Shown here: positions 14,928-39,793 of the stretch, piece by piece | How the letters are laid out: every line of letters begins with the position of its first letter | How positions within the stretch are numbered: the first letter of the stretch is position 1 | Virus record (IMG/VR): IMGVR_UViG_2922690425_000004 | Coordinates: 64,001-128,000 of that record | Source: a virus | Taxonomy: Duplodnaviria; Caudoviricetes | Strand: one strand, 5' to 3' | DNA length: 64,000 nt | Program-made: the position numbers and the translations under genes | Notes under the pieces: model-generated | Told to the model about the DNA's origin: nothing | Database searches by the model: none | What the model saw: the letters and a program-made list of their open reading frames with translations, nothing else

Positions 14928-14984
14928 TCGTCATCCCAACACATGTTCGGTAAAAGATGTGTTTCACAGGGAAGGAGCATAGCT

Positions 14985-15350
14985 GTGACTGATAAGATTG
15001 ACCTGTATGTTGACGATCTTAGAGACTGTCCAGATGGCTTTGTGGTGGCTCGTACATACTATGAAGCAATACATATCCTTGAAACCAAAAGTGTCGGCAT
15101 TCTTACGTTAGACCATGATTTGGGAGAGGACGTAGATGGTAAAGAACTGCCTAACGGATATGACTTGGTGAAGTACTTCTGTGAACATGGATTGAGGGCT
15201 GATAAGATATATTTACATACAGACAACCCTGTGGGACGCAAGAACATGCATGAAACGTTGTTAGCTGCTCAGCGGAGAGGTTTTATCGATGAGGATATTG
15301 AGATATATCATTATCCTATAACGGTGAACAAGTATTCTGGTAGCTGGTAA
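14985..15350 (+). CDS. Cyclic-phosphate-processing receiver-like domain protein
   Basis: LYVDDLR.CP, LDHDLG, GYD, HTDNPVGR motifs; GTG start after AAGGAG. Confidence 0.8.
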   Translation: MTDKIDLYVDDLRDCPDGFVVARTYYEAIHILETKSVGILTLDHDLGEDVDGKELPNGYDLVKYFCEHGLRADKIYLHTDNPVGRKNMHETLLAAQRRGFIDEDIEIYHYPITVNKYSGSW

Positions 15351-15388
15351 AAGGCATGTTTCATAATGGAGAGGAGACCCAGAATAAA

Positions 15389-16543
15389 ATGAAATTAAAG
15401 GTTCAGTTCACAAACGAGCTACCATTTATGATTCAACTTCCAAATGGAGATTATTCAGTAAGAACGAGACTAAACCCAACAGAAGAGAAAGATTTTATCC
15501 TAAAATTAAGTGATGATGTTTTCAGAGTACATATTAATCCTTTTGGTAGCAAAAAGTCTGCCATGTGTATCGAAGGTGAGAGAGCGGAATTGGAAAGTTA
15601 CATAATCAATAATCGTATTCCAAATTATGCTTTCGAACCTTGTAAAAGTTATATTAGTTGTACAATTGAGGAGGAACTAGAATTAAAAGATGAACTGTAT
15701 TTAAATGTCACGAACGACGACTTGATTGATAAAATTAAATCAAAAATGATAAGAGAAGGAATTAAATATACTGATACCATTGATTTAACTAGAATGGCGA
15801 CAACAGAATTTGGCACCTACAATACAGATCAGGTTTTAGAAGAAAAAATAGATTACGTTGTTAATAGGAGATTGAATGAACTTAGCAGATTAGTTTATCC
15901 CTATCATAATGCTTTAAATCAATTCATAAAACAATATTCTTATCTGCGAAATGATTTTTTTGTCGAAACTACAACTATGCATACTCTTAAGGGGACGACA
16001 TCGAGACAGTTTGTCGATGGTTATTATTATGATTCTATTAAGCATGCTGGAAAAGCACCTAGCATGATGCCATATCAAAAATGGTTACCAGAGATCGATA
16101 GTAATCATGTTGAAACATTAAAAGAAAGACTTATAAATGGTTTCGATATTCCACCTACTAAAGATTTGATTATAATGGCTCGCAATCTTGCTGAAAGAGG
16201 AGAGTACCGTTCAGCAATCATTAATAGTTCCGCAGCTCTTGAGGTTGCTGTAGAACAAAAAATCATTGAGAAAATGTATTTGAATGGAAACACGCAAGCG
16301 GAAATTGATACTTTCTTAGACAGCACAAAGACTAATTTTTATAGGAGATGCGACAGACAATTGAATGAGAAGGCAGGGCAATCACTGGTACGAAACAATC
16401 CTACTCTTTGGACAAACATTAATTCCCACAGGAATAGATACCGTCATAAGATTGCTCATTCTTCGCTCATGCCCAATGCGAGGGATACCGAGAAAGTAAT
16501 TAACGATTTTGAGATAGCCGTAAACTGGGTAGAAGCTTTATAA
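15389..16543 (+). CDS. HEPN-domain protein (ApeA-like, putative RNase/defence effector)
   Basis: C-terminal YRSAII...ALEV and R-x4-H motif RHKIAH. Confidence 0.6.
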   Translation: MKLKVQFTNELPFMIQLPNGDYSVRTRLNPTEEKDFILKLSDDVFRVHINPFGSKKSAMCIEGERAELESYIINNRIPNYAFEPCKSYISCTIEEELELKDELYLNVTNDDLIDKIKSKMIREGIKYTDTIDLTRMATTEFGTYNTDQVLEEKIDYVVNRRLNELSRLVYPYHNALNQFIKQYSYLRNDFFVETTTMHTLKGTTSRQFVDGYYYDSIKHAGKAPSMMPYQKWLPEIDSNHVETLKERLINGFDIPPTKDLIIMARNLAERGEYRSAIINSSAALEVAVEQKIIEKMYLNGNTQAEIDTFLDSTKTNFYRRCDRQLNEKAGQSLVRNNPTLWTNINSHRNRYRHKIAHSSLMPNARDTEKVINDFEIAVNWVEAL

Positions 16544-17549: not shown

Positions 17550-18071
17550 TTAAATGGCAGGTTCTTCTTTGTGTGCAATGTTTTTTGGAAACCCTAATTG
17601 TTCGGCTCTGTGTATAATTTTAATTAATGTGTCTAAATCCTCGCTAGCGATAGGTCTTTCTTTCCTGCCATCACTAATTTCGATTTTCAACTCATTTATT
17701 TTATTTGTTTGCATTCGAATTGTTTCCTGCATATTCAGAAATTCCAATCGCAAGTTATTTAGTGCGTCGATTGCTTTATCTATTTCTGTCATATAATTTA
17801 TGTCTTCTTTCATAGCTGTGTTGGTATTTGTATTTCTTATTTTTGTATTTGTCTTATTATTCATTCTTTCTTCTTTAGCTGCTTTTATTTCATTCCTATA
17901 GTTATGTCTCAAAGCACTGTTCCAGCGAAAACCACATGCTGCCGCTGTACGATTTAGTTCTCTCCCAACCTCCTGAAATGCAGTTAATTGAGTTTTGTTA
18001 CTGCTTATATAGTTAATCACTGTTTTAGCTAGCAGATCGTCATCGGATCGAGACCAAGCGTCTTGTCGCAT
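17550..18071 (-). CDS. RsfA/YlbO-family transcriptional regulator
   Basis: MRQDAWS..DD.LLA..V..YI...QL.AF.EVG..LNRTAAACGFRWNS signature. Confidence 0.9.
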   Translation of the reverse strand: MRQDAWSRSDDDLLAKTVINYISSNKTQLTAFQEVGRELNRTAAACGFRWNSALRHNYRNEIKAAKEERMNNKTNTKIRNTNTNTAMKEDINYMTEIDKAIDALNNLRLEFLNMQETIRMQTNKINELKIEISDGRKERPIASEDLDTLIKIIHRAEQLGFPKNIAHKEEPAI

Positions 18072-18144
18072 CTATATTCCTCCCTGAAGATATCCTTAAT
18101 GCTATGTATATCCAGTTGTCAATAGTATTATGCACTTAGGCACG

Positions 18145-18222
18145 GAAATATTCGTATGATACGAAAAAAACTTGACAGAACAAACGTTCCATCTTGTATT
18201 TAATTATTTTTGTTAGTATAAT
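18145..18222. promoter_or_regulatory. Divergent control region: palindrome, LexA box, operator, SigA promoter
   Basis: TTCGTATGATACGAA 18151-18165; TTGACA 18172; GAAC-AAAC-GTTC 18178-18189; reverse operator 18199-18214; TTGTAT-17-TATAAT 18194-18222. Confidence 0.7.
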
Positions 18223-18319
18223 TACATATAGAAAGAGCAAGATAAGTTTAGAAAAGTACATAATAGAATTTAAAACTAGTAGCAAAAATAAAAATAAGAT
18301 GAGAAGTAAACAATAGTTA

Positions 18320-18706
18320 ATGAGGAGTGATTACATAGTGGCGGTAGCAATGGATCGAATGACAAAAGAAATTAAACGCTTGGATATGTGGAATGTACAT
18401 TTAGGGAGCAATAAAGGGAGCGTACAAAGTGGTGAAAGACCTTGTGTGGTGATTGGTAACAATATGGGAAACAAGTATTCTCCAGTAGTTATAGTGGCTC
18501 CTGTAACATCACGTGTAAAAAAAGAAATGCCTACTCATGTAAAAGTAAGTGGAACAGACACAGGACTATATAGCGATAGCATCATTTTGCTGGAACAAAT
18601 TATGACTATATCCAAAGATCAATTAGATTTTAAAATTACCGAACTTCCAGATAAGTATAGTCATGAAATTGTGGATGCATTATCAGTTTCATTGGCAATG
18701 AGATAA
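18320..18706 (+). CDS. mazF: PemK/MazF-family endoribonuclease (no adjacent antitoxin seen)
   Basis: GSVQSGERPCVVIGNNMGNKYSPVVIVAPVTS, SIILLEQI.TI.K. Confidence 0.88.
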   Translation: MRSDYIVAVAMDRMTKEIKRLDMWNVHLGSNKGSVQSGERPCVVIGNNMGNKYSPVVIVAPVTSRVKKEMPTHVKVSGTDTGLYSDSIILLEQIMTISKDQLDFKITELPDKYSHEIVDALSVSLAMR

Positions 18707-18733
18707 AGAAACGGGAAACTAATCCCGTTTCTC
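18706..18733. terminator. Bidirectional terminator between convergent genes
   Basis: AGAAACGGGA..TCCCGTTTCT hairpin. Confidence 0.6.
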
Positions 18734-18940
18734 TTCTTTATGTAAAAGGATTATCTCATCAAGATCTATATCCAAGACTTCGCAAATAGTAGCCAAGTTG
18801 TCGAAAGATAGTTGTTTTGCAGTGTTATTGCATAGGCTATTTATTGTTGCAGGTCTAATGCCAGTTCTGCGCGCCAACTCCCTATTACTAATACCCTTTC
18901 TATCTAATATATGAGAGAGTGTAATTTCAAACCACCACAT
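18719..18940 (-). CDS. XRE/Cro-like HTH regulator (HTH_26 type)
   Basis: ISNRELARRTGIRPATINSLCNN..KQLSFDNL..IC. Confidence 0.88.
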   Translation of the reverse strand: MWWFEITLSHILDRKGISNRELARRTGIRPATINSLCNNTAKQLSFDNLATICEVLDIDLDEIILLHKEEKRD

Positions 18941-21394: not shown

Positions 21395-22714
21395 GTGACG
21401 ATATTGAAAAAAGAGAGAAGCGAATTAGAACAACGTCTAACTGAAATTGTTGAATCAAATAAAAATGATAAGAAAAGCATTTTAAAAATTAATGATCGTT
21501 TGAGTGCATTGGGAGTTCCATACGGAGAATATAATAAAATAATAATCAACACAAAACTGTTACAAGATACTGATATTTCACTTATATGTGTGATTACAGA
21601 AGTATTGCAAAGTGTACTTGGTAATACAATAATTGATGTAATGGACTATTTTAGCCATAATGAAATAAACGAAGCAAAAGAAAACATTAAATTGATCTAT
21701 CAAAAAGATTATTTAAAACTGCCTATTACTTTTGAAGACGTAATACAAATAGATGAAAGATCGTATTCTACAAAGATTACTATACAGATGTTGGTACAAA
21801 TGTTCAATTCTCAATTAATTAATTATGACCCTCGTTCCCAACGTGGTATGAGATACAAAGGTAATACTCGCGATGGTGTAGTGGAGTCACCCATTGTTAA
21901 CCAAACGAGTGTAAAAAAAATTGCTCAAAAAATTCTAAATCAAAGCTATCTTGCAGATACAATTACTTTTAATGTATTCGCATACGAGCACCAACCTGTG
22001 ACATATGATAAAGAAAATTATACTCTCACAATAAACGAAAAAAGTATAATTTCCATACTCGATGGATATCATCGTTTTCAAGGTCAAATTAAAGCTTTGA
22101 ACACAAAAGAAGACATTGATTTTGTATCTCCTCTTTCAATAAGAGTATATGACAACACCACCGCAGAACAATATTTTGGTCAAATAAATACCATAAACCC
22201 TTTGTCCAAGGAAAGAAGAAAAGAACTACAAGCGGAAAAGAAGTCAGACAACGTGGTAAAAGAATTACAAAATAATCCAAATAGTGAACTAAGAGGGATT
22301 AGAATTGCTTCTAGCAGAAAGGCAAATAAAGAAGTTGGTCAACTTACAACTTTCAGTATTTTGTCATTCGGAATTGAAAAAACATTTAACCCAACTAATT
22401 ATGTTGAGTACAGAGAAGTCTCAGAATATTTAATTAAATTTTTTGGGTATCTTATTGGCTTTTATTACGACGAATTTATTGAAAATCCCAATAAACACAC
22501 TTATATCAACAATCCTTTTATGTTCCTTGGGTATACGGTTATCGCTAAACGTTTTTACGATGAGAATAGAGAATTGAAAAGTTTGAAGAGTGTTGTAGAT
22601 GAGATCAATTTTGAAGATAATGATTTGATTGAAATCCTTGAATCGAAGAGAATTTACGACAATAAGAAATTACAGGGAGAACTTATAAAATATTTTGAGC
22701 GCACTATAAAATAA
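21395..22714 (+). CDS. DndB/ParB-like (DGQHR-type) protein, SPbeta YopQ-like
   Basis: YDPRSQRG, ILDGYHR, F.QINT motifs; directly upstream of YopR-like gene. Confidence 0.75.
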   Translation: MTILKKERSELEQRLTEIVESNKNDKKSILKINDRLSALGVPYGEYNKIIINTKLLQDTDISLICVITEVLQSVLGNTIIDVMDYFSHNEINEAKENIKLIYQKDYLKLPITFEDVIQIDERSYSTKITIQMLVQMFNSQLINYDPRSQRGMRYKGNTRDGVVESPIVNQTSVKKIAQKILNQSYLADTITFNVFAYEHQPVTYDKENYTLTINEKSIISILDGYHRFQGQIKALNTKEDIDFVSPLSIRVYDNTTAEQYFGQINTINPLSKERRKELQAEKKSDNVVKELQNNPNSELRGIRIASSRKANKEVGQLTTFSILSFGIEKTFNPTNYVEYREVSEYLIKFFGYLIGFYYDEFIENPNKHTYINNPFMFLGYTVIAKRFYDENRELKSLKSVVDEINFEDNDLIEILESKRIYDNKKLQGELIKYFERTIK

Positions 22715-22731: not shown

Positions 22732-23721
22732 ATGAACCGTATATATGGAGACAATCTATATAATCCAGATATAAAACAAAGGTTTTTAGAGGGATATAGA
22801 AAAGCAACAAGAGGTAATTATGAAAGTAAATTAAAACGTGCAAGCAAGGTTGAAATGAAATACAACAAAGATTTGTATAATTTTAGTTTGTCCGAAATCG
22901 AAGAGGTTATGTATTTGTTGGCTCCCAATAAATTGAGTTCGGCAACTATATATGGATCGGTAATTAAAAAATACATCGAGTGGGCTATTTCTCAAGATCT
23001 TAGAGCTGATAATCTGAATCCACTTGATGTTGTTAATGGTAAGGAATTTTATGAAAAGTTTATTCCAAAACAAATTCTTATAAGAGATGACGATCTTGAG
23101 TTAGCGCTTGGTAAAATTGATAGCAATAGAGATATTGTTATAATTCAAAGTATATTTGAAGGCATTCTAGGACGTGAATGCTCCGAAATCAGGAACTTGA
23201 AAAAGCAGGATATAAATCAAGCCAATGGGACAGTAAAACTTACAAACGTTGGACGATATGGTGAAGTGGAAGAACGAGAAATAGAGATAAGCGAATTTTT
23301 ATTGGAAGCAATGTTTAGAGCCGATGAGGAGACAGCTTATAGCTCAAATTTCGGTGAAGGGAGTCTCAGTAATAAAAAAATCAGTAGCCTTAAAGACAGT
23401 TCTTATATTATAAAAAGCACTAAAGACGAAAAAGTTAAACAGACCCTTATATCTCAAACTATCACAAAGTTTGCTACAAAGCTAAATATGGATAGATTGT
23501 CTCCAGTAGACATAAGGAATTCAGGAATGCTAAAAATGGCGAAAGATTTTTATGTTGATAATAAGGGTAAACTGGAGAGAAGCGATATACATGAAATAAG
23601 CAAAAAGTTTAATGTGGGCAGTAAAGATGGAGAGATTTTCTATACAACAATGTACACAAAAGACTTTTTAAATATAGAAACAATAATAAGAATATATCCA
23701 GAAGTACTTGAAGTAGAATAA
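22732..23721 (+). CDS. Tyrosine-recombinase-fold lysogeny repressor, SPbeta YopR/MrpR-like
   Basis: YN.DIK.RFL, E..YNKDLY.F, YIEWAIS, FEGI.G...SE, P..I..SG match YopR as recalled; HxxR His replaced (PVDIR). Confidence 0.8.
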   Translation: MNRIYGDNLYNPDIKQRFLEGYRKATRGNYESKLKRASKVEMKYNKDLYNFSLSEIEEVMYLLAPNKLSSATIYGSVIKKYIEWAISQDLRADNLNPLDVVNGKEFYEKFIPKQILIRDDDLELALGKIDSNRDIVIIQSIFEGILGRECSEIRNLKKQDINQANGTVKLTNVGRYGEVEEREIEISEFLLEAMFRADEETAYSSNFGEGSLSNKKISSLKDSSYIIKSTKDEKVKQTLISQTITKFATKLNMDRLSPVDIRNSGMLKMAKDFYVDNKGKLERSDIHEISKKFNVGSKDGEIFYTTMYTKDFLNIETIIRIYPEVLEVE

Positions 23722-23746
23722 GTTTTTTCTTATTCTACTTTTTTTT
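23711..23746 (+). terminator. Intrinsic terminator after repressor gene
   Basis: AAGTAGAATAAG-T6-CTTATTCTACTT + T run. Confidence 0.75.
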
Positions 23747-23757
23747 ATGTGTAGATG

Positions 23758-23812
23758 TTGACAGATCTGATTACTCATGATATATTCACTATATAAATTA
23801 ATTATATTTGTA
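23758..23812 (+). promoter_or_regulatory. SigA promoter of agr-like operon with inverted phage operator
   Basis: TTGACA 23758-17 bp-TATATT 23781; ATTAATTATATTTGTA 23797-23812 is the reverse complement of the operator. Confidence 0.65.
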
Positions 23813-23833
23813 TTTAGGGAGAGAAACAGCAGA

Positions 23834-24475
23834 ATGGAAACAATCAAATACATATTATTGTCTATGTTTGATGGAGTAGCAATTTTTACATTTGGTTTTG
23901 GGATGTACCAAGTTAAGCTTCGTGAGTATTGGATACAGTTTGTGGTGGCGAGTTTATGTATATCTGTTGCTACTTATCTATACAGAGATTATGGGCTACC
24001 AGAGAACTTTGCTCCCATTGTAAACATAGGTTTGATGATCGTTTTTCTCATTTCTTTGTTTAAGATATCGCTACTTTCATCACTTAGAATTTCTGGAATT
24101 AGTTTTTTGTTTTCATTTATTGCTCAAACAATAATTGCAGTCCTTTTTATGGTATCAACATCGAAGTCATTAGATTCAACACTTTTTACATATGGATATA
24201 TAGTACAAATAGCAGGGGACAGTATAGTAATCTTTACAAGTCTATATTTAAGAAAAAAATCTATCTGGTTTACTACATTACCCTATCAATACTCCTTAAA
24301 ATTCAAATTAAATTTCTCGAATATCACTTTGTTTATTGCGTCACTTTTAGGCGTAACATTTATGAGTAAATCTATTTTTAACAATATATATATAAATGGT
24401 CTTTTTTGGTTGGCAATATTCGTGATTATGATAATGATTGAATTTAGAAAGGAATTAAAAGATGAGAATAATTGA
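23834..24475 (+). CDS. Polytopic membrane protein, AgrC-sensor-like, lacking a histidine kinase domain
   Basis: About 7 hydrophobic segments, no HisKA/HATPase region; overlaps agrB; ATG 23834 after AGGGAG. Confidence 0.6.
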   Translation: METIKYILLSMFDGVAIFTFGFGMYQVKLREYWIQFVVASLCISVATYLYRDYGLPENFAPIVNIGLMIVFLISLFKISLLSSLRISGISFLFSFIAQTIIAVLFMVSTSKSLDSTLFTYGYIVQIAGDSIVIFTSLYLRKKSIWFTTLPYQYSLKFKLNFSNITLFIASLLGVTFMSKSIFNNIYINGLFWLAIFVIMIMIEFRKELKDENN

Positions 24476-25001
24476 TCATTTTGTTGACAAAGTGAGTCAC
24501 CAATTAAAAAATAAATATCCAGACGAGTTGCCTTCATATGGAATCATCCGATATGCTTTAAAGTTCATAATTACAAATACTATACCTATTTTTTTGATAA
24601 TAATGTTTTCTCTGATTTTTGGTAATTTAAAAGAAAGTTTGATAGCGATACTTGGTTTCTCACTACTAAGAATATTTTCGGGAGGGTTTCATTTTCAAAC
24701 TCCCGAAAAGTGCATAATTTTTTCGACAGTAATGATTATTCTTATTTCTGAACTTGGCTACTATTTTACTACACATACTTTTATAATGTTTATAGTTAGT
24801 TTGCTTATAGTTCTAATTTACGCACCAAGCGATATACAAAATCAAACAAAAGTAAAAAAAGAAAATTATAAATGGTTTAAAATTATTTCATTGTTGCTAG
24901 TTTCAATATTTTATTTAATAGACAACCCAATATCTAATCTAGCTATATTAGTTCAAAGTATTCTTCTTATTCGCCTGAAGGGAGGTGGAAAGGAAGAATG
25001 A
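24462..25001 (+). CDS. agrB: AgrB-family peptide-processing membrane protein
   Basis: F..LR.FSGGFH....C motif, YAP. Confidence 0.92.
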   Translation: MRIIDHFVDKVSHQLKNKYPDELPSYGIIRYALKFIITNTIPIFLIIMFSLIFGNLKESLIAILGFSLLRIFSGGFHFQTPEKCIIFSTVMIILISELGYYFTTHTFIMFIVSLLIVLIYAPSDIQNQTKVKKENYKWFKIISLLLVSIFYLIDNPISNLAILVQSILLIRLKGGGKEE

Positions 25002-25117
25002 AAAGCAAATTGATTATGTTAGTTGGCTTCGTTTTTACGATTCTGACTGTAGCAGAAGTAAATCTCGCTAGTTGGACGCTGGTATGCAGTGAGCCAGTGC
25101 CTGATGAATTGAAGTAA
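24998..25117 (+). CDS. agrD: AgrD-like cyclic-lactone autoinducer precursor (39 aa, not in ORF track)
   Basis: MKSKLIMLVGFVFTILTVAEVNLASWTLVCSEPVPDELK; ATGA overlap with agrB; GGAGG RBS; amphipathic leader and P.P.EL tail. Confidence 0.85.
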   Translation: MKSKLIMLVGFVFTILTVAEVNLASWTLVCSEPVPDELK

Positions 25118-25193
25118 TTAAGTGAAACAAATGTTTACCGCCTTGTACTGAATAAAACTTGCAAGGCGAGTAAACGAATCGAGGTGAATTCCA

Positions 25194-25559
25194 ATGAAGT
25201 TGACAGATACAATCAAGGTAGTAAAAAGAGAAGGTAAAAAAACACATGACCAAGCGATAATGCTTCAAGTTGGGGAAATCCGAGCTTTTAAACCTGAAAC
25301 AAAAAATGGACGAACTACGCTTGTATATTTGACAGATGACGGTGAATACATAGACGAGACCAGAGTGGATCAAACGATGAAATTATTTCAAGAACTACCT
25401 GAGTTTGAAAAAGCAAGTAGAGGAAGTATGGTTCAGATCGGAAAAATTGAACATATAGATGAAAAGAGTTATAAGATTTATGTCAATAAGCTTAAAACTC
25501 ATTTCGTAGATGTAACAGCTATACACTTGAAAAAAATACTGAGTTATTTCAAAAGGTAA
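25194..25559 (+). CDS. Stand-alone LytTR DNA-binding protein
   Basis: FEKASRGSMVQIGKIEHID matches LytTR F.R..RS..VN..KI..id; no receiver domain. Confidence 0.75.
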   Translation: MKLTDTIKVVKREGKKTHDQAIMLQVGEIRAFKPETKNGRTTLVYLTDDGEYIDETRVDQTMKLFQELPEFEKASRGSMVQIGKIEHIDEKSYKIYVNKLKTHFVDVTAIHLKKILSYFKR

Positions 25560-25743
25560 AATATAATTATCAATAATACATATAAATAACGGTAACTTCT
25601 TGCATTTTACCTTTTGGTATTGGTATAATGAAGTAAATCAGAACAAGTGTTCTTGTTTATTGGTTATTCGACATTTTGCGACATAAATATTGTAGATCAT
25701 TCCATATAAAGGGTTTTGTCAAGAAATATTCGTATGATATGAA
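25550..25743. promoter_or_regulatory. Composite control region (13-bp IR, SigA promoter, LexA box, tandem Spo0A boxes, palindrome)
   Basis: CAAAAGGTAAAAT/ATTTTACCTTTTG; TTGCAT-18-TATAAT 25600-25629; GAAC-AAGT-GTTC 25641; TTCGACA 25667 and TGCGACA 25677; TTCGTATGATATGAA 25729. Confidence 0.65.
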
Positions 25744-25813
25744 TTTCAGTTGCCTAACTCTGGAAATATCATATAATTAATGTATAGAAAAAATATTACA
25801 GAGGAGAAAAGTT

Positions 25814-26194
25814 ATGCAGCATGAAGAGCTAGTCGAAGCATTACAGATTCCTGAAAAGGCAGATATAATTATAAATTTGATGAACTTTCTTTTACGTTCT
25901 AATGACGATAGAAGTGAAATGTTCTTTTACTGTTGTAAACAAAAAGGCTTAGAGTTGGAGTTTCTTGGGAAGAAAAGAAGGGCATTAATCGACCAATATG
26001 GATATAAAAATAAAGAAGATTTTGTTGCTGATTACTTAGAAGACAAAGCTAAAGCTTTAGAGAAATTATGCCAAGAAAAAGCGGAAGAATGTATATTGAT
26101 TAAATTTAAAACGAATAATCCCGACAAGATTTATAATGCCTACACTAGAAGCGGAAAATATACAGCAATGATTAGATTAGCGTACTTAGCCTAG
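25814..26194 (+). CDS. Hypothetical protein
   Basis: GAGGAG RBS. Confidence 0.75.
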   Translation: MQHEELVEALQIPEKADIIINLMNFLLRSNDDRSEMFFYCCKQKGLELEFLGKKRRALIDQYGYKNKEDFVADYLEDKAKALEKLCQEKAEECILIKFKTNNPDKIYNAYTRSGKYTAMIRLAYLA

Positions 26195-26327: not shown

Positions 26328-26959
26328 ATGAGTAAAAGAATACTTTTATCAAGATAGACAGTTACCAAAAGGCAATACACAATACATATTTCCAATAAAG
26401 ATAAGGGAGAAGATATGGTATTTACGAAAATGAATTCAATGGAAAGAAAGTAAGACATCTCAATAATTACAGAACTATTTTTATACCAGAATATCACAAA
26501 ACACTAAGAGGAAGGGGATATGAAGGATTTGTATATGAACACATATATATTGCAGAGGACATGATTGGACGTGAATTGAGACTTAAAGAAGTTGTACACC
26601 ATCTTGACCTTAACAAGCAAAACAATCATCCAAAAAATCTAATTGTACTTGAGAGTTCTCAACATGCTAAATTGCATGGTTGGCTGAAAAGAATCGATTT
26701 CAATAGTACAGTTAAACATCTTTATTGCTCTCCTTATTGCGAGGTTTGTGGGAAGATACTTAAATCTCATCAGCAAAAAACATGTTCTAGTAAATGCGGC
26801 AGTATATCAAGAGGAGTTAATCAGCGTAAGTTGGAATGGCCTAATCCAGAAGAGTTATCTCAAATGATGAACACAATGAGTTGGGTTGCAATTGGTAGAA
26901 AATATAAGGTTAGTGATAACACAGTTCGTAAGTGGGCTAAAAAGTACAATATTTTATAA
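26328..26959 (+). pseudogene. HNH homing endonuclease, 5' part apparently frameshifted
   Basis: GFVYEH..IAE..IGR.L...EVVHHLD.NK.NN...NL; frame open from ~26405 without a start; upstream ATG 26328 needs frameshifts. Confidence 0.6.
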
Positions 26960-38130: not shown

Positions 38131-38601
38131 TTACTTGGAAGTTGTAATGTTCACATTCAATGTTCCATCAATTTTTTTAGCATCAACTTTAGCTCCCAAT
38201 ACTTCAGAAACAATTCGCAATGGAACTTGAATGCGAGTTGCCGGACTTTGCGGTGCAACAAGCAAGGTTTTCTTTTCACCATTGACATACGCAGTTTTGC
38301 TACCGACCGCTAATTTAATTACAGTTCCGTCTTTCGATTGGATGGTGACTTGTTGCAAAGCTTTATTCCAATCTGTTACTTTGCCACCTAAATTTTCAGA
38401 AACAAAACGAAGAGGAACAAAAGCTGTATTTGTAGCATTATCAATATACGGAGGCGCATCTGAATTAGTTCCGAAATTAACGGGAACATTGTTTACCTCC
38501 ACATTAATTGTGTAATTATAAGGATGTTTTGTTGCACTGGCTTGTACGCTTAATGCAAGTGAAAAAATAAGAAACACAGAAACCATAAAGAATCTTTTCA
38601 T
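38131..38601 (-). CDS. Copper-amine-oxidase N-terminal (stalk) domain secreted protein
   Basis: Signal peptide; PYI..FVPLRFVSE.LG..V.W; VPLR.VSE.LGA.V. Confidence 0.88.
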   Translation of the reverse strand: MKRFFMVSVFLIFSLALSVQASATKHPYNYTINVEVNNVPVNFGTNSDAPPYIDNATNTAFVPLRFVSENLGGKVTDWNKALQQVTIQSKDGTVIKLAVGSKTAYVNGEKKTLLVAPQSPATRIQVPLRIVSEVLGAKVDAKKIDGTLNVNITTSK

Positions 38602-38632
38602 GATGTCTTTCTCCTTTTAATTCAAAGTACAA

Positions 38633-39793
38633 TCAATTTACTGAAAAGACATATCTTTCTGACTGCCCTGACTTGGTATAGTCTATTTTTCCTCCGTGAG
38701 TCCATACGTCGTTGCTTAATCCTGAGACGCTACTTGGGTAAACAGAACTGGAACTATTGTTAGTTAGAAATTTCATATTGTTCCAAATAGCAGGTGTAGT
38801 GTATCCATAGTGGAATGGGCTGGTGGTTGAAGTGGCAGAACCCATAGCTATTGCAGTTAGCCGCTTAACTGATCTACCTGTGCTTCCTAATCCATTAAAT
38901 CTAACAACATAAATATCCGAGTAATTTATTTGCTCTCTAATGGTGAGCGTTGAGTCTGTTGAGTAATAATATACTTTATAGCCGTTAATTTTGTCACCAC
39001 CATAGAACTTTTTAGTTGTATCATAGTAATATTTACCACTACTAGGTTGTGGTATGCCATTGGTATTTCCTGAATCAACAGTATGATTTGATTTTGCATG
39101 GAACATTGGATACCACCCAGCTGGAGTAAACTGAGAAGCAATTCCTTCAAATCCAACTTCAGCTACTCCATCAACACCAGTGTATAAGTAGGCTGCCTCT
39201 GAATATTTCAAAGCATCAGTGATATTATAAGTTGGCAAAACAACAGAGTCTGCAACTACGCCATTATATATTTTATTAGCGTTACTAGCGGGAGTTTGAA
39301 GGCGATGGAATGCCCCTGTTTCTTTGCCTGCTGTGTTTCCTTGATTACCTAAGTAAGATTGTGTAGAGATTCTTTCATGTGGTTCAGTTCCATATGTAGA
39401 TTCTGTAGTTGTGATTTCTCTTGTTTCAAAATTTGATCGGATATCGCCTTTATCGGAGGAAGTTGCGTTAATTAATTCTCCATCTGAATCGAAGTCTAGA
39501 AGAACAACTTCTGCATTTTCCAATTTTTTGATGTTTTCTTTTGTGGTTTGACTAATGCTAGAACTTTCTGTGATGTTGTCTAAAGTTTTATCGAATTCCT
39601 TATTGCTCAAAGTTGACATGCCTTTTGCAGTACTAGATGCACCTTTATCTAGTAAGATTTCTTGTTCAATCGCTTCTTTAATATACTGGTCATAGTTGTT
39701 GGGAGTAGCATTTTCTTGGGCATTTGCCATTAAAGAAGGGATTGATGCAGATAGGAGCAAAACAGATAAAGCAACTTTAGCTACTTTTAACAT
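38633..39793 (-). CDS. Secreted protein (YrpD-like beta-rich C-terminal domain, tentative)
   Basis: Signal peptide; GAFHR..Y.G..LP..AYLYTG; VKRLT.IA. Confidence 0.6.
   Translation of the reverse strand: MLKVAKVALSVLLLSASIPSLMANAQENATPNNYDQYIKEAIEQEILLDKGASSTAKGMSTLSNKEFDKTLDNITESSSISQTTKENIKKLENAEVVLLDFDSDGELINATSSDKGDIRSNFETREITTTESTYGTEPHERISTQSYLGNQGNTAGKETGAFHRLQTPASNANKIYNGVVADSVVLPTYNITDALKYSEAAYLYTGVDGVAEVGFEGIASQFTPAGWYPMFHAKSNHTVDSGNTNGIPQPSSGKYYYDTTKKFYGGDKINGYKVYYYSTDSTLTIREQINYSDIYVVRFNGLGSTGRSVKRLTAIAMGSATSTTSPFHYGYTTPAIWNNMKFLTNNSSSSVYPSSVSGLSNDVWTHGGKIDYTKSGQSERYVFSVN

Follow-up and report, generated by a model that had tools for sequence, protein, structure and literature searches.

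A candidate kinase-free agr-type peptide-signalling cassette in the lysis-lysogeny control region of an SPbeta-like Paenibacillus prophage

What takes the place of arbitrium at the lysis-lysogeny switch of an SPbeta-like prophage that lacks it? The question is raised by an operon of four genes (the cassette) that lies directly behind the master repressor gene in a 64,000-nucleotide stretch of viral DNA (the window), comprising bases 64001-128000 of the IMG/VR provirus IMGVR_UViG_2922690425_000004. The provirus is 160,162 bp long, has a G+C content of 34% and is complete according to CheckV. The nearest relatives of its proteins were found in genomes of the Paenibacillus polymyxa group, and the region shows SPbeta-type synteny, with a DndB-domain YopQ-like gene followed by a clear MrpR/YopR homologue; the provirus is an SPbeta-like Paenibacillus prophage. 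To our knowledge, arbitrium is the only phage peptide language with an understood mechanism, and its receptor is cytoplasmic. With moderate confidence, the cassette is read here as a self-contained, phosphorelay-free agr-type peptide-signalling operon in the lysis-lysogeny control region of an arbitrium-less prophage, where it would bias the choice between lysogeny and lysis. Coordinates are those of the window unless indicated otherwise; loci and genomes used for comparison are given by working numbers (L and G).

Genes and products of the cassette

The four genes listed in a preliminary description of this DNA (membrane protein, AgrB, a 39-amino-acid (aa) AgrD and LytTR) were all present and intact on the + strand, and are translationally coupled or closely spaced; the 39-aa open reading frame (ORF) was found exactly as quoted there. 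The features are:

23834-24475 (+): seven-helix membrane protein, AgrC-type sensor domain without DHp or ATPase domain, putative peptide receptor (family profile and AlphaFold2 (AF2) model)
24462-25001 (+): AgrB peptidase/cyclase (PF04647, 97.5 bits with a cut-off of 23, 7.6e-28); the start overlaps the stop of the sensor gene
24998-25117 (+): AgrD-type precursor, 39 aa, with hydrophobic leader, predicted ring S-W-T-L-V and tail CSEPVPDELK; ATGA overlap with agrB
25133-25175 (+): strong hairpin between agrD and the LytTR gene, no U-tract (-20.7 kcal/mol, z -3.8)
25194-25559 (+): LytTR-only DNA-binding protein, 121 aa, no receiver domain (PF04397, 20.8 bits with a cut-off of 22.6)

By its profile matches, the membrane protein is a kinase-less AgrC sensor domain. 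This identity is new here; both it and the receiver-less state of the LytTR protein were missed in the preliminary description. According to the homologues, the gene starts at 23834 (METIKY..., 213 aa) behind the ribosome-binding site AGGGAGAG, and not at 23777 (232 aa). An exhaustive profile search yielded 69 representatives of the sensor family, with lengths of 206-229 aa except for three short ones (121-193 aa), and none was longer or fused. Among AgrB neighbourhoods of representative genomes, the family profile matched over its full length to residues 3-205 of a 458-aa protein from Chengkuizengella axinellae (L028; E 9e-39); the C-terminus of this protein is a histidine-kinase ATPase (HATPase_c, 2.4e-21), and its gene immediately precedes AgrB. 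The profile also matched clostridial AgrC kinases over their first 200 residues, more weakly (2e-8; L045). The sensor of the cassette contains no histidine residue and gave no HATPase hit, and so falls short of the AgrC kinase architecture (sensor, DHp and GHKL ATPase).

An AF2 model of the sensor based on 51 sequences (predicted local distance difference test score, pLDDT, 90.9) was confident and showed seven helices. No match at E <= 0.001 was obtained when the model was compared with the PDB by using Foldseek (best 0.48), and a membrane-protein scan of the representative genomes returned nothing useful. From the charge distribution, the N-terminus is predicted to lie outside and the C-terminus inside. 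The predicted cytoplasmic loops are conserved, above all the motif FTTLPYQY..KFK, and the predicted outer loops are variable, a pattern in keeping with a receptor whose ligands diversify while its partner inside the cell stays the same. The membrane protein was also considered as an MroQ/CPBP-type protease for the N-terminal processing of AgrD and was rejected (no His, no Glu-Glu motif).

Two loci show other arrangements of the sensor gene. The genome of C. axinellae carries, besides the kinase-fused sensor (L028:3373-4749), a kinase-less cassette in the order AgrB, sensor, LytTR (L020), and the pair is natural material for studying how the kinase was lost. In Paenibacillus sp. GYB003 (L027:2667-5014), three tandem sensor paralogues are followed by one AgrB and one LytTR gene.

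The catalytic residues of AgrB, H77 and C84, were invariant in an alignment with three relatives, gp45 of Brevibacillus phage Abouo included. The 39-aa ORF that follows has a strong ribosome-binding site, and its counterparts in relatives (38-41 aa) are called by gene callers. No Pfam or NCBIfam AgrD model hit the precursor, so its membership in AgrD rests on architecture and on translational coupling to agrB. An alignment of about 15 precursor homologues showed a hydrophobic leader, then A-S-W-x-x-x, then x-x-E-x-V-P-x-E-L-K. After Ser-Trp, the ring reads TLV, TLI, TIL, TVI, MLF, AAL or ALF. The preliminary description had predicted a Ser-lactone ring, SWTLV, and this is the best reading of the aligned precursors, because A-S-W is invariant in about 13 phage lineages, the Cys of the window's precursor is replaced by His or Gly in relatives, and in the chromosomal homologue L018 a Cys takes exactly the place of the Ser. 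Ten residues separate the Ser from the conserved Pro downstream, the register of the ring Cys in S. aureus AgrD. Ser-lactone peptides of the agr type are known from the Staphylococcus intermedius group (autoinducing peptide) and from Enterococcus (gelatinase biosynthesis-activating pheromone, GBAP).

The LytTR family profile matched the C-terminal (LytTR) halves of AgrA-type regulators. AgrA proper combines a receiver with LytTR; the 121-aa protein has LytTR only, and receiver-bearing, host-type AgrA proteins occur elsewhere (L045, L073). As the predicted products include no kinase, no phospho-acceptor histidine and no receiver domain, a two-component phosphorelay is excluded for the cassette. 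The hairpin between agrD and the LytTR gene has counterparts of unrelated sequence at the same place in 13 other lineages, at full size in 12 of them (the L085 stretch that was folded comprised 35 nt). It is a probable attenuator or stabiliser of mRNA 3' ends, and probably sets the ratio of signal-making to regulator transcripts.

Bacteriocin loci commonly combine a small modified peptide with an immunity protein in the membrane and a LytTR regulator, and the four products could be read accordingly as an antimicrobial or toxic peptide processed by AgrB, its immunity factor and a local regulator, with no signal involved. This explanation is very improbable, as the homologues of the membrane protein are sensor domains of AgrC, among them one that is fused to a kinase and encoded beside AgrB, and the precursor has all the features of AgrD.

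Position behind the repressor and linkage in relatives

The preliminary description had placed the operon just after the terminator of a YopR/MrpR-like repressor, and this position was borne out by the following features:

21395-22714 (+): YopQ-like (DndB-domain) gene, upstream partner of mrpR (PF14072 DndB, 1.4e-7; phrog_5732, 7e-93), syntenic in all relatives
22732-23721 (+): MrpR/YopR-type master repressor homologue with tyrosine-recombinase fold (PF22822 MrpR_N_CB, 86 bits, 2.8e-24)
23710-23741 (+): intrinsic terminator of mrpR, 13-bp stem and T-run (-14.8 kcal/mol, z -4.9), conserved in L006 and L007
23758-23786 (+): cassette promoter TTGACA-17-TATATT, extended by TG and matching the consensus at 11 of 12 positions; no change of the -35 and -10 boxes in L006 and L007
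23799-23814 (+): copy of a 14-copy repeated element, candidate MrpR operator, in the 5' untranslated region (UTR) just before the ribosome-binding site and downstream of the -10 box

Against the PDB, the repressor homologue matched 8a0a (MrpR, 1.5e-20) and 8bj6 (YopR, 2.4e-20), the matches to 8a0a, 8bj6 and 9rd5 spanning 1e-20 to 2e-23. The promoter, near-consensus and driving all four cassette genes, starts 17 bases after the mrpR terminator, which abuts the -35 box.

The 16-nt repeated element, TAATTAT(A/T)TTTGTAT, occurs 14 times in the provirus (0-5 times in shuffled sequences). Thirteen of the copies abut the -35 boxes of + strand promoters; the cassette copy alone is inverted, and its core is conserved in L006 and L007. 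The description of this element as a repeated phage operator carried by the promoter stands in part: the element does lie in the promoter region, but in the 5' UTR, and its binding by MrpR is suggested by analogy. SPbeta MrpR binds the element SPBRE, of about 15 bp, at ten promoters, including PaimR (PMC10516654). An AT-rich element extracted from three MrpR-bound SPbeta promoter regions adjoins the -35 box in the case of PaimR and immediately precedes the ribosome-binding site in those of yopM and yopV; the 16-nt element of the provirus shares both positions as well as the core ATACAAA.A.TA (a partial sequence). The repeated element is therefore a candidate MrpR operator, and probably the operator itself to judge from SPbeta; because of the resemblance in position and core, the cassette would by analogy be under the control of the master repressor, as arbitrium is.

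AimR (PF22871) was absent from the whole 160-kb provirus at E <= 10, a control from B. subtilis being positive, so that the absence of an AimR-like gene first noted for the window holds for the entire record, in which a search for aimR/aimP had been suggested. It was also absent from two related lysogen genomes (G001 and G002), and was not found by using phmmer within 7 kb of mrpR in 25 viral contigs. Two ORFs were considered as receptors and rejected: a 395-aa ORF (15356-16543) as AimR, having no AimR or TPR hit, a HEPN-like C-terminus and a cREC_REC gene adjoining it; and a 386-aa reverse-strand ORF (38633-39793) as RRNPP receptor, having a signal peptide and no repeats.

The gene order YopQ, MrpR, sensor, AgrB, AgrD, LytTR, 126-aa gene, replication genes was found again in six assembly lineages; identity between their cassette proteins and those of the window is only 30-60%. 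In the viral contigs, the cassette directly follows mrpR in 13 of the 25 MrpR neighbourhoods; altogether the linkage was found in about 19 loci. All loci with an MrpR at least 36% identical to that of the window carry the cassette, except L081. The survey of yopR neighbourhoods for agrBD that had been proposed thus gave a linkage conserved in relatives, where its failure to be conserved had been named as grounds for giving up the idea. Scans with AgrB and MrpR profiles were productive; a scan of viral contigs with a single AgrB protein gave nothing, and a blastn search of the region against a phage collection gave no match.

Some loci differ in detail. One viral contig (IMGVR_UViG_3300012153_000089; L086, L090) has mrpR in two paralogous copies at a distance of about 13 kb, and the cassette follows just one of them. 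A second, weak LytTR-like small ORF lies about 6.5 kb upstream of mrpR in L083, L084 and L090. A more distant MrpR-bearing viral contig (L088:8138-10135) has the order AgrB, sensor, longer LytTR protein, with no detectable 126-aa gene.

Downstream of the cassette, the early region begins with the following features:

25600-25652 (+): early promoter TTGCAT-18-TATAAT, then LexA-type box GAACAAGTGTTC (25641-25652), conserved in L006 and L007
25729-25777 (+): 15-bp near-palindrome TTCGTATGATATGAA and second promoter TTGCCT-16-TATAAT, ahead of the first early gene
25814-26194 (+): 126-aa early protein of unknown family (no Pfam hit), a conserved neighbour outside the cassette

As no terminator was predicted after the LytTR gene, transcription could run on into this region. 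The motif GAAC-N4-GTTC occurs three times (at 18178, 25641 and 46395; 0.53 expected). Every standard phage locus with the cassette has the 126-aa gene, and so does the cassette-less L087, where it stands directly after mrpR and is again preceded by a LexA-type box. Judged by this locus, the cassette is an insert that separates the repressor gene from an older early promoter under SOS control, and the 126-aa protein was rejected as a dedicated output of the cassette. The regions 18136-18320 and 25600-25780 share, besides the LexA-type box, the 15-bp palindrome, which is perfect (TTCGTATGATACGAA) at 18151-18165 and present as a near-copy at 25729; it may be the operator of a 73-aa Cro/CI-type helix-turn-helix (HTH) protein encoded at 18719-18940 (-).

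Proposed mechanism and competing explanations

In the proposed mechanism, AgrB would cut off the acidic tail of the precursor and close the S-W-T-L-V Ser-lactone ring with a short N-terminal tail, and the peptide would be exported. Outside the cell it would bind to the variable outer face of the sensor, which would hold or release the LytTR protein at the conserved cytoplasmic loop FTTLPYQY..KFK, in the manner of the membrane inhibitors of LytTR regulatory systems. Once freed or captured, the LytTR protein would alter transcription from phage promoters, the likeliest being those of the SOS-box early region that follows the cassette, and the density of the peptide would bias lysogeny against lytic growth, in the role that arbitrium has in SPbeta. 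We infer this role in the lysis-lysogeny decision from sequence and position. The proposal in its specific form, that a kinase-less sensor gates a receiver-less LytTR protein by direct contact upon binding of a Ser-lactone, and that a clade of SPbeta-like Paenibacillus phages uses this circuit under control of the master repressor in place of arbitrium, is put forward tentatively.

If true, phages would have a second peptide language, unrelated in mechanism to the first, and the agr family a new mode of signal transduction. The cassette may be a way for phages to gauge their own density; if the proposal works, it would represent convergent evolution of phage density sensing and show how an agr-type sensor signals without a kinase, a question shared by many chromosomal copies in the Paenibacillaceae. 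The idea is directly testable, because the P. polymyxa host group is genetically tractable and P. polymyxa agrBD has already been expressed in B. subtilis to identify its peptides (PMC12180512).

Several points weigh against this reading. The LytTR protein of the window scores below the Pfam cut-off; orthologues exceed it (Abouo gp47, 29.4 bits; L023, 38.9 bits). Direct repeats of the LytTR type were found neither at the promoter of the cassette nor ahead of chromosomal cassettes, none were consistent among 17 cassettes, and the repeat search yielded neither a LytTR target site nor an output promoter. Diversification of the peptide, which had been expected, was found in part: the ring does vary, but the variants are few, and SWTLI is common to phages with MrpR proteins 62% and 36-37% identical to that of the window, which amounts to less diversification than would be expected of private languages. 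The relatives L081 and L087 lack the cassette. The cassette is common in bacterial chromosomes, so that nothing in its function ties it inherently to the life cycles of phages. Finally, peptide production, binding of the peptide to the sensor and contact between sensor and LytTR protein are all predicted.

The chromosomal copies bear on the main rival, a lysogenic-conversion module, in which the prophage would give its host an extra quorum-sensing circuit with LytTR output on host genes (sporulation, secondary metabolism, surface) and not on the phage switch. In representative genomes, 16 Paenibacillaceae AgrB loci (Paenibacillus, Brevibacillus, Thermobacillus, Chengkuizengella and Longirhabdus) carry the family sensor next to AgrB, usually together with a LytTR-only gene and without mrpR; among them, L028 is the kinase-fused form, and L021 and L030 gave no LytTR hit. 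Metagenomic copies of the cassette have genes of sporulation and germination (gerP, spoVA and cotH) as neighbours. This chromosomal occurrence of the identical cassette type and its neighbours would suit a conversion module, as would a moron-like layout with its own promoter and an upstream terminator; moreover, host agr regulates antibiotic production in P. polymyxa (PMC12180512). In about 19 loci the cassette keeps one and the same place between mrpR and the early promoter, which argues against conversion, and so do the candidate repressor operator in the 5' UTR, which predicts silence in lysogens, the lack of a terminator between cassette and early genes, and the cassette in the lysogeny module of the unrelated phage Abouo. 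On balance, conversion is unlikely, if the most serious of the rivals.

In the AgrB tree, the cassette AgrBs form a clade separate from the AgrBs of clostridia (100/100). Of the seven prophage AgrBs, six form a weakly supported group (93/55), and a single origin of the prophage cassettes was not resolved by the tree. The lysogen genome G001 contains no AgrB besides that of the prophage; the host agr of G002 is canonical (ring CWWIA), and its AgrC was not matched by the sensor profile. These hosts bear on the suggestion, made in the preliminary description, that the peptide jams host agr signalling. The lactone would then act mainly as an antagonist or mimic at the host AgrC receptor. Lactone analogues of S. 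aureus thiolactone peptides tend to inhibit and not to activate. The predicted ring also resembles those of host peptides in shape (C-F-G-L-F in P. polymyxa, PMC12180512; C-W-W-I-A in G002), position 2 of the ring being aromatic and positions 4-5 hydrophobic. The cassette, however, always has sensor and LytTR genes of its own, for which a jammer would have no need; with G001 lacking any other AgrB and the host AgrC of G002 missed by the sensor profile, interference is disfavoured and has to be called a long shot.

The surroundings of the yopQ-mrpR block are rich in defence-type and toxin genes. Just upstream of it lies a gene for a MazF/PemK-type toxin (18320-18706 (+); PF02452, 1e-24) beside one for a Myb-like DNA-binding protein (17550-18071 (-)), an arrangement conserved in relatives. 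At 14943-16543, a cREC_REC receiver-like gene (PF20274, 3.4e-29) precedes that for the 395-aa protein with a weak HEPN-like C-terminus (phrog_28299), and the two look like a defence or signalling pair; cREC_REC is present at the corresponding place in relatives, one of which has a GmrSD_N gene nearby. The SPbeta arbitrium operon acts through the host MazEF system (PMC10516654), and by analogy a link to the phage MazF/PemK toxin may be meaningful.

With such neighbours, the peptide could instead serve in superinfection or kin discrimination, altering immunity, exclusion or abortive infection in neighbouring cells that carry the same prophage, and not the choice between lysis and lysogeny. That sensor and regulator are phage-borne, so that only carriers can respond, would agree with such a function, as would the connection of arbitrium to MazEF. 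No regulatory link was found between the LytTR protein and the defence or toxin genes, to which the cassette is not adjacent, and this explanation is accordingly rated improbable.

Two further neighbours complete the region. An HNH_3 endonuclease with C-terminal HTH (26561-26959), encoded between the 126-aa early gene and YorF-like genes, is missing at that place in L006 and L011 and so is probably a homing endonuclease. At 38131-39793 (-), a reverse-strand pair stands among + strand genes; the products, both with signal peptides, are the 386-aa protein, which is secreted and belongs to no known family, and a 156-aa protein with a copper-amine-oxidase N-terminal domain, and the pair looks moron-like.

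Comparison with known systems

Canonical agr loci (agrBDCA of S. aureus and P. polymyxa) share with the cassette the His/Cys dyad of AgrB, a five-residue ring and the E-x-V-P-x-E-L tail of AgrD; the cassette sensor has its homologue in the sensor domain of AgrC, and LytTR, the output domain, is that of AgrA. The cassette differs in that its sensor has no DHp, no ATPase and no His, its regulator has no receiver, the sensor gene comes first, and the whole is phage-borne. Its precursor has Ser instead of Cys, which predicts a lactone and not a thiolactone; the P. polymyxa locus makes Ac-I-c(CFGLF) (PMC12180512). The agr3 locus of Clostridioides difficile phage phiCDHM1 is likewise phage-borne, with agrB, agrD and a sensor gene (PMC3901668), but its AgrC kinase is complete and it brings no regulator with it, whereas the cassette has a LytTR regulator and no kinase.

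Closest in gene content is Brevibacillus phage Abouo (also phages Davies and Emery), in which gp44-gp47 are the same four genes in the same order: a membrane protein of about 220 aa, AgrB (32% identical to that of the window), a Ser-type AgrD of about 40 aa that ends in P-E-E-L-K and a 122-aa LytTR-only protein. There, too, the cassette lies in the lysogeny module, between the integrase and repressor genes. Abouo is, however, an unrelated 45-kb siphovirus with an integrase and a CI/Cro-type switch, unlike the SPbeta-like phage of the window with its MrpR, and its sensor and LytTR proteins could not be aligned with those of the window by BLASTP. Hargreaves et al. noted in 2014 the AgrB, the AgrD and the membrane proteins without kinase of this phage, with no mention of the LytTR gene, and nothing was tested (PMC3901668); no paper was found in the literature in which such a cassette was tested.

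For the control of the regulator by the sensor, the closest working model is offered, by analogy, by the LytTR regulatory systems HdrRM and BrsRM of Streptococcus mutans, which likewise combine a LytTR-only regulator with a polytopic membrane protein and use no phosphorylation, the membrane protein holding the regulator inactive (PMC6193735). In these systems the regulator gene comes first and no peptide ligand is known; in the cassette the membrane protein gene comes first, with agrBD in between. Their 9-bp direct repeats (12-bp spacer), situated about 10 bp upstream of the -35 box and serving self-activation, were not found at the cassette.

Arbitrium (aimR-aimP-aimX of SPbeta and phi3T) is, like the putative system described here, a secreted-peptide system of phages in the neighbourhood of yopQ-yopR, and as SPbeta has an MrpR operator on PaimR (PMC10516654), the window has the analogous repeated element in the promoter region of the agr cassette. 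The proteins are unrelated: arbitrium relies on a cytoplasmic TPR receptor and an imported linear hexapeptide, the cassette on a membrane sensor for a predicted cyclic peptide. A related lineage without arbitrium thus keeps a predicted membrane-sensed cyclic-peptide module at the same regulatory hub, apparently with the same kind of repressor operator. The agr parts and the Abouo cassette were known; what is new is that agr parts are rewired without phosphorylation and fixed in the switch region of a phage.

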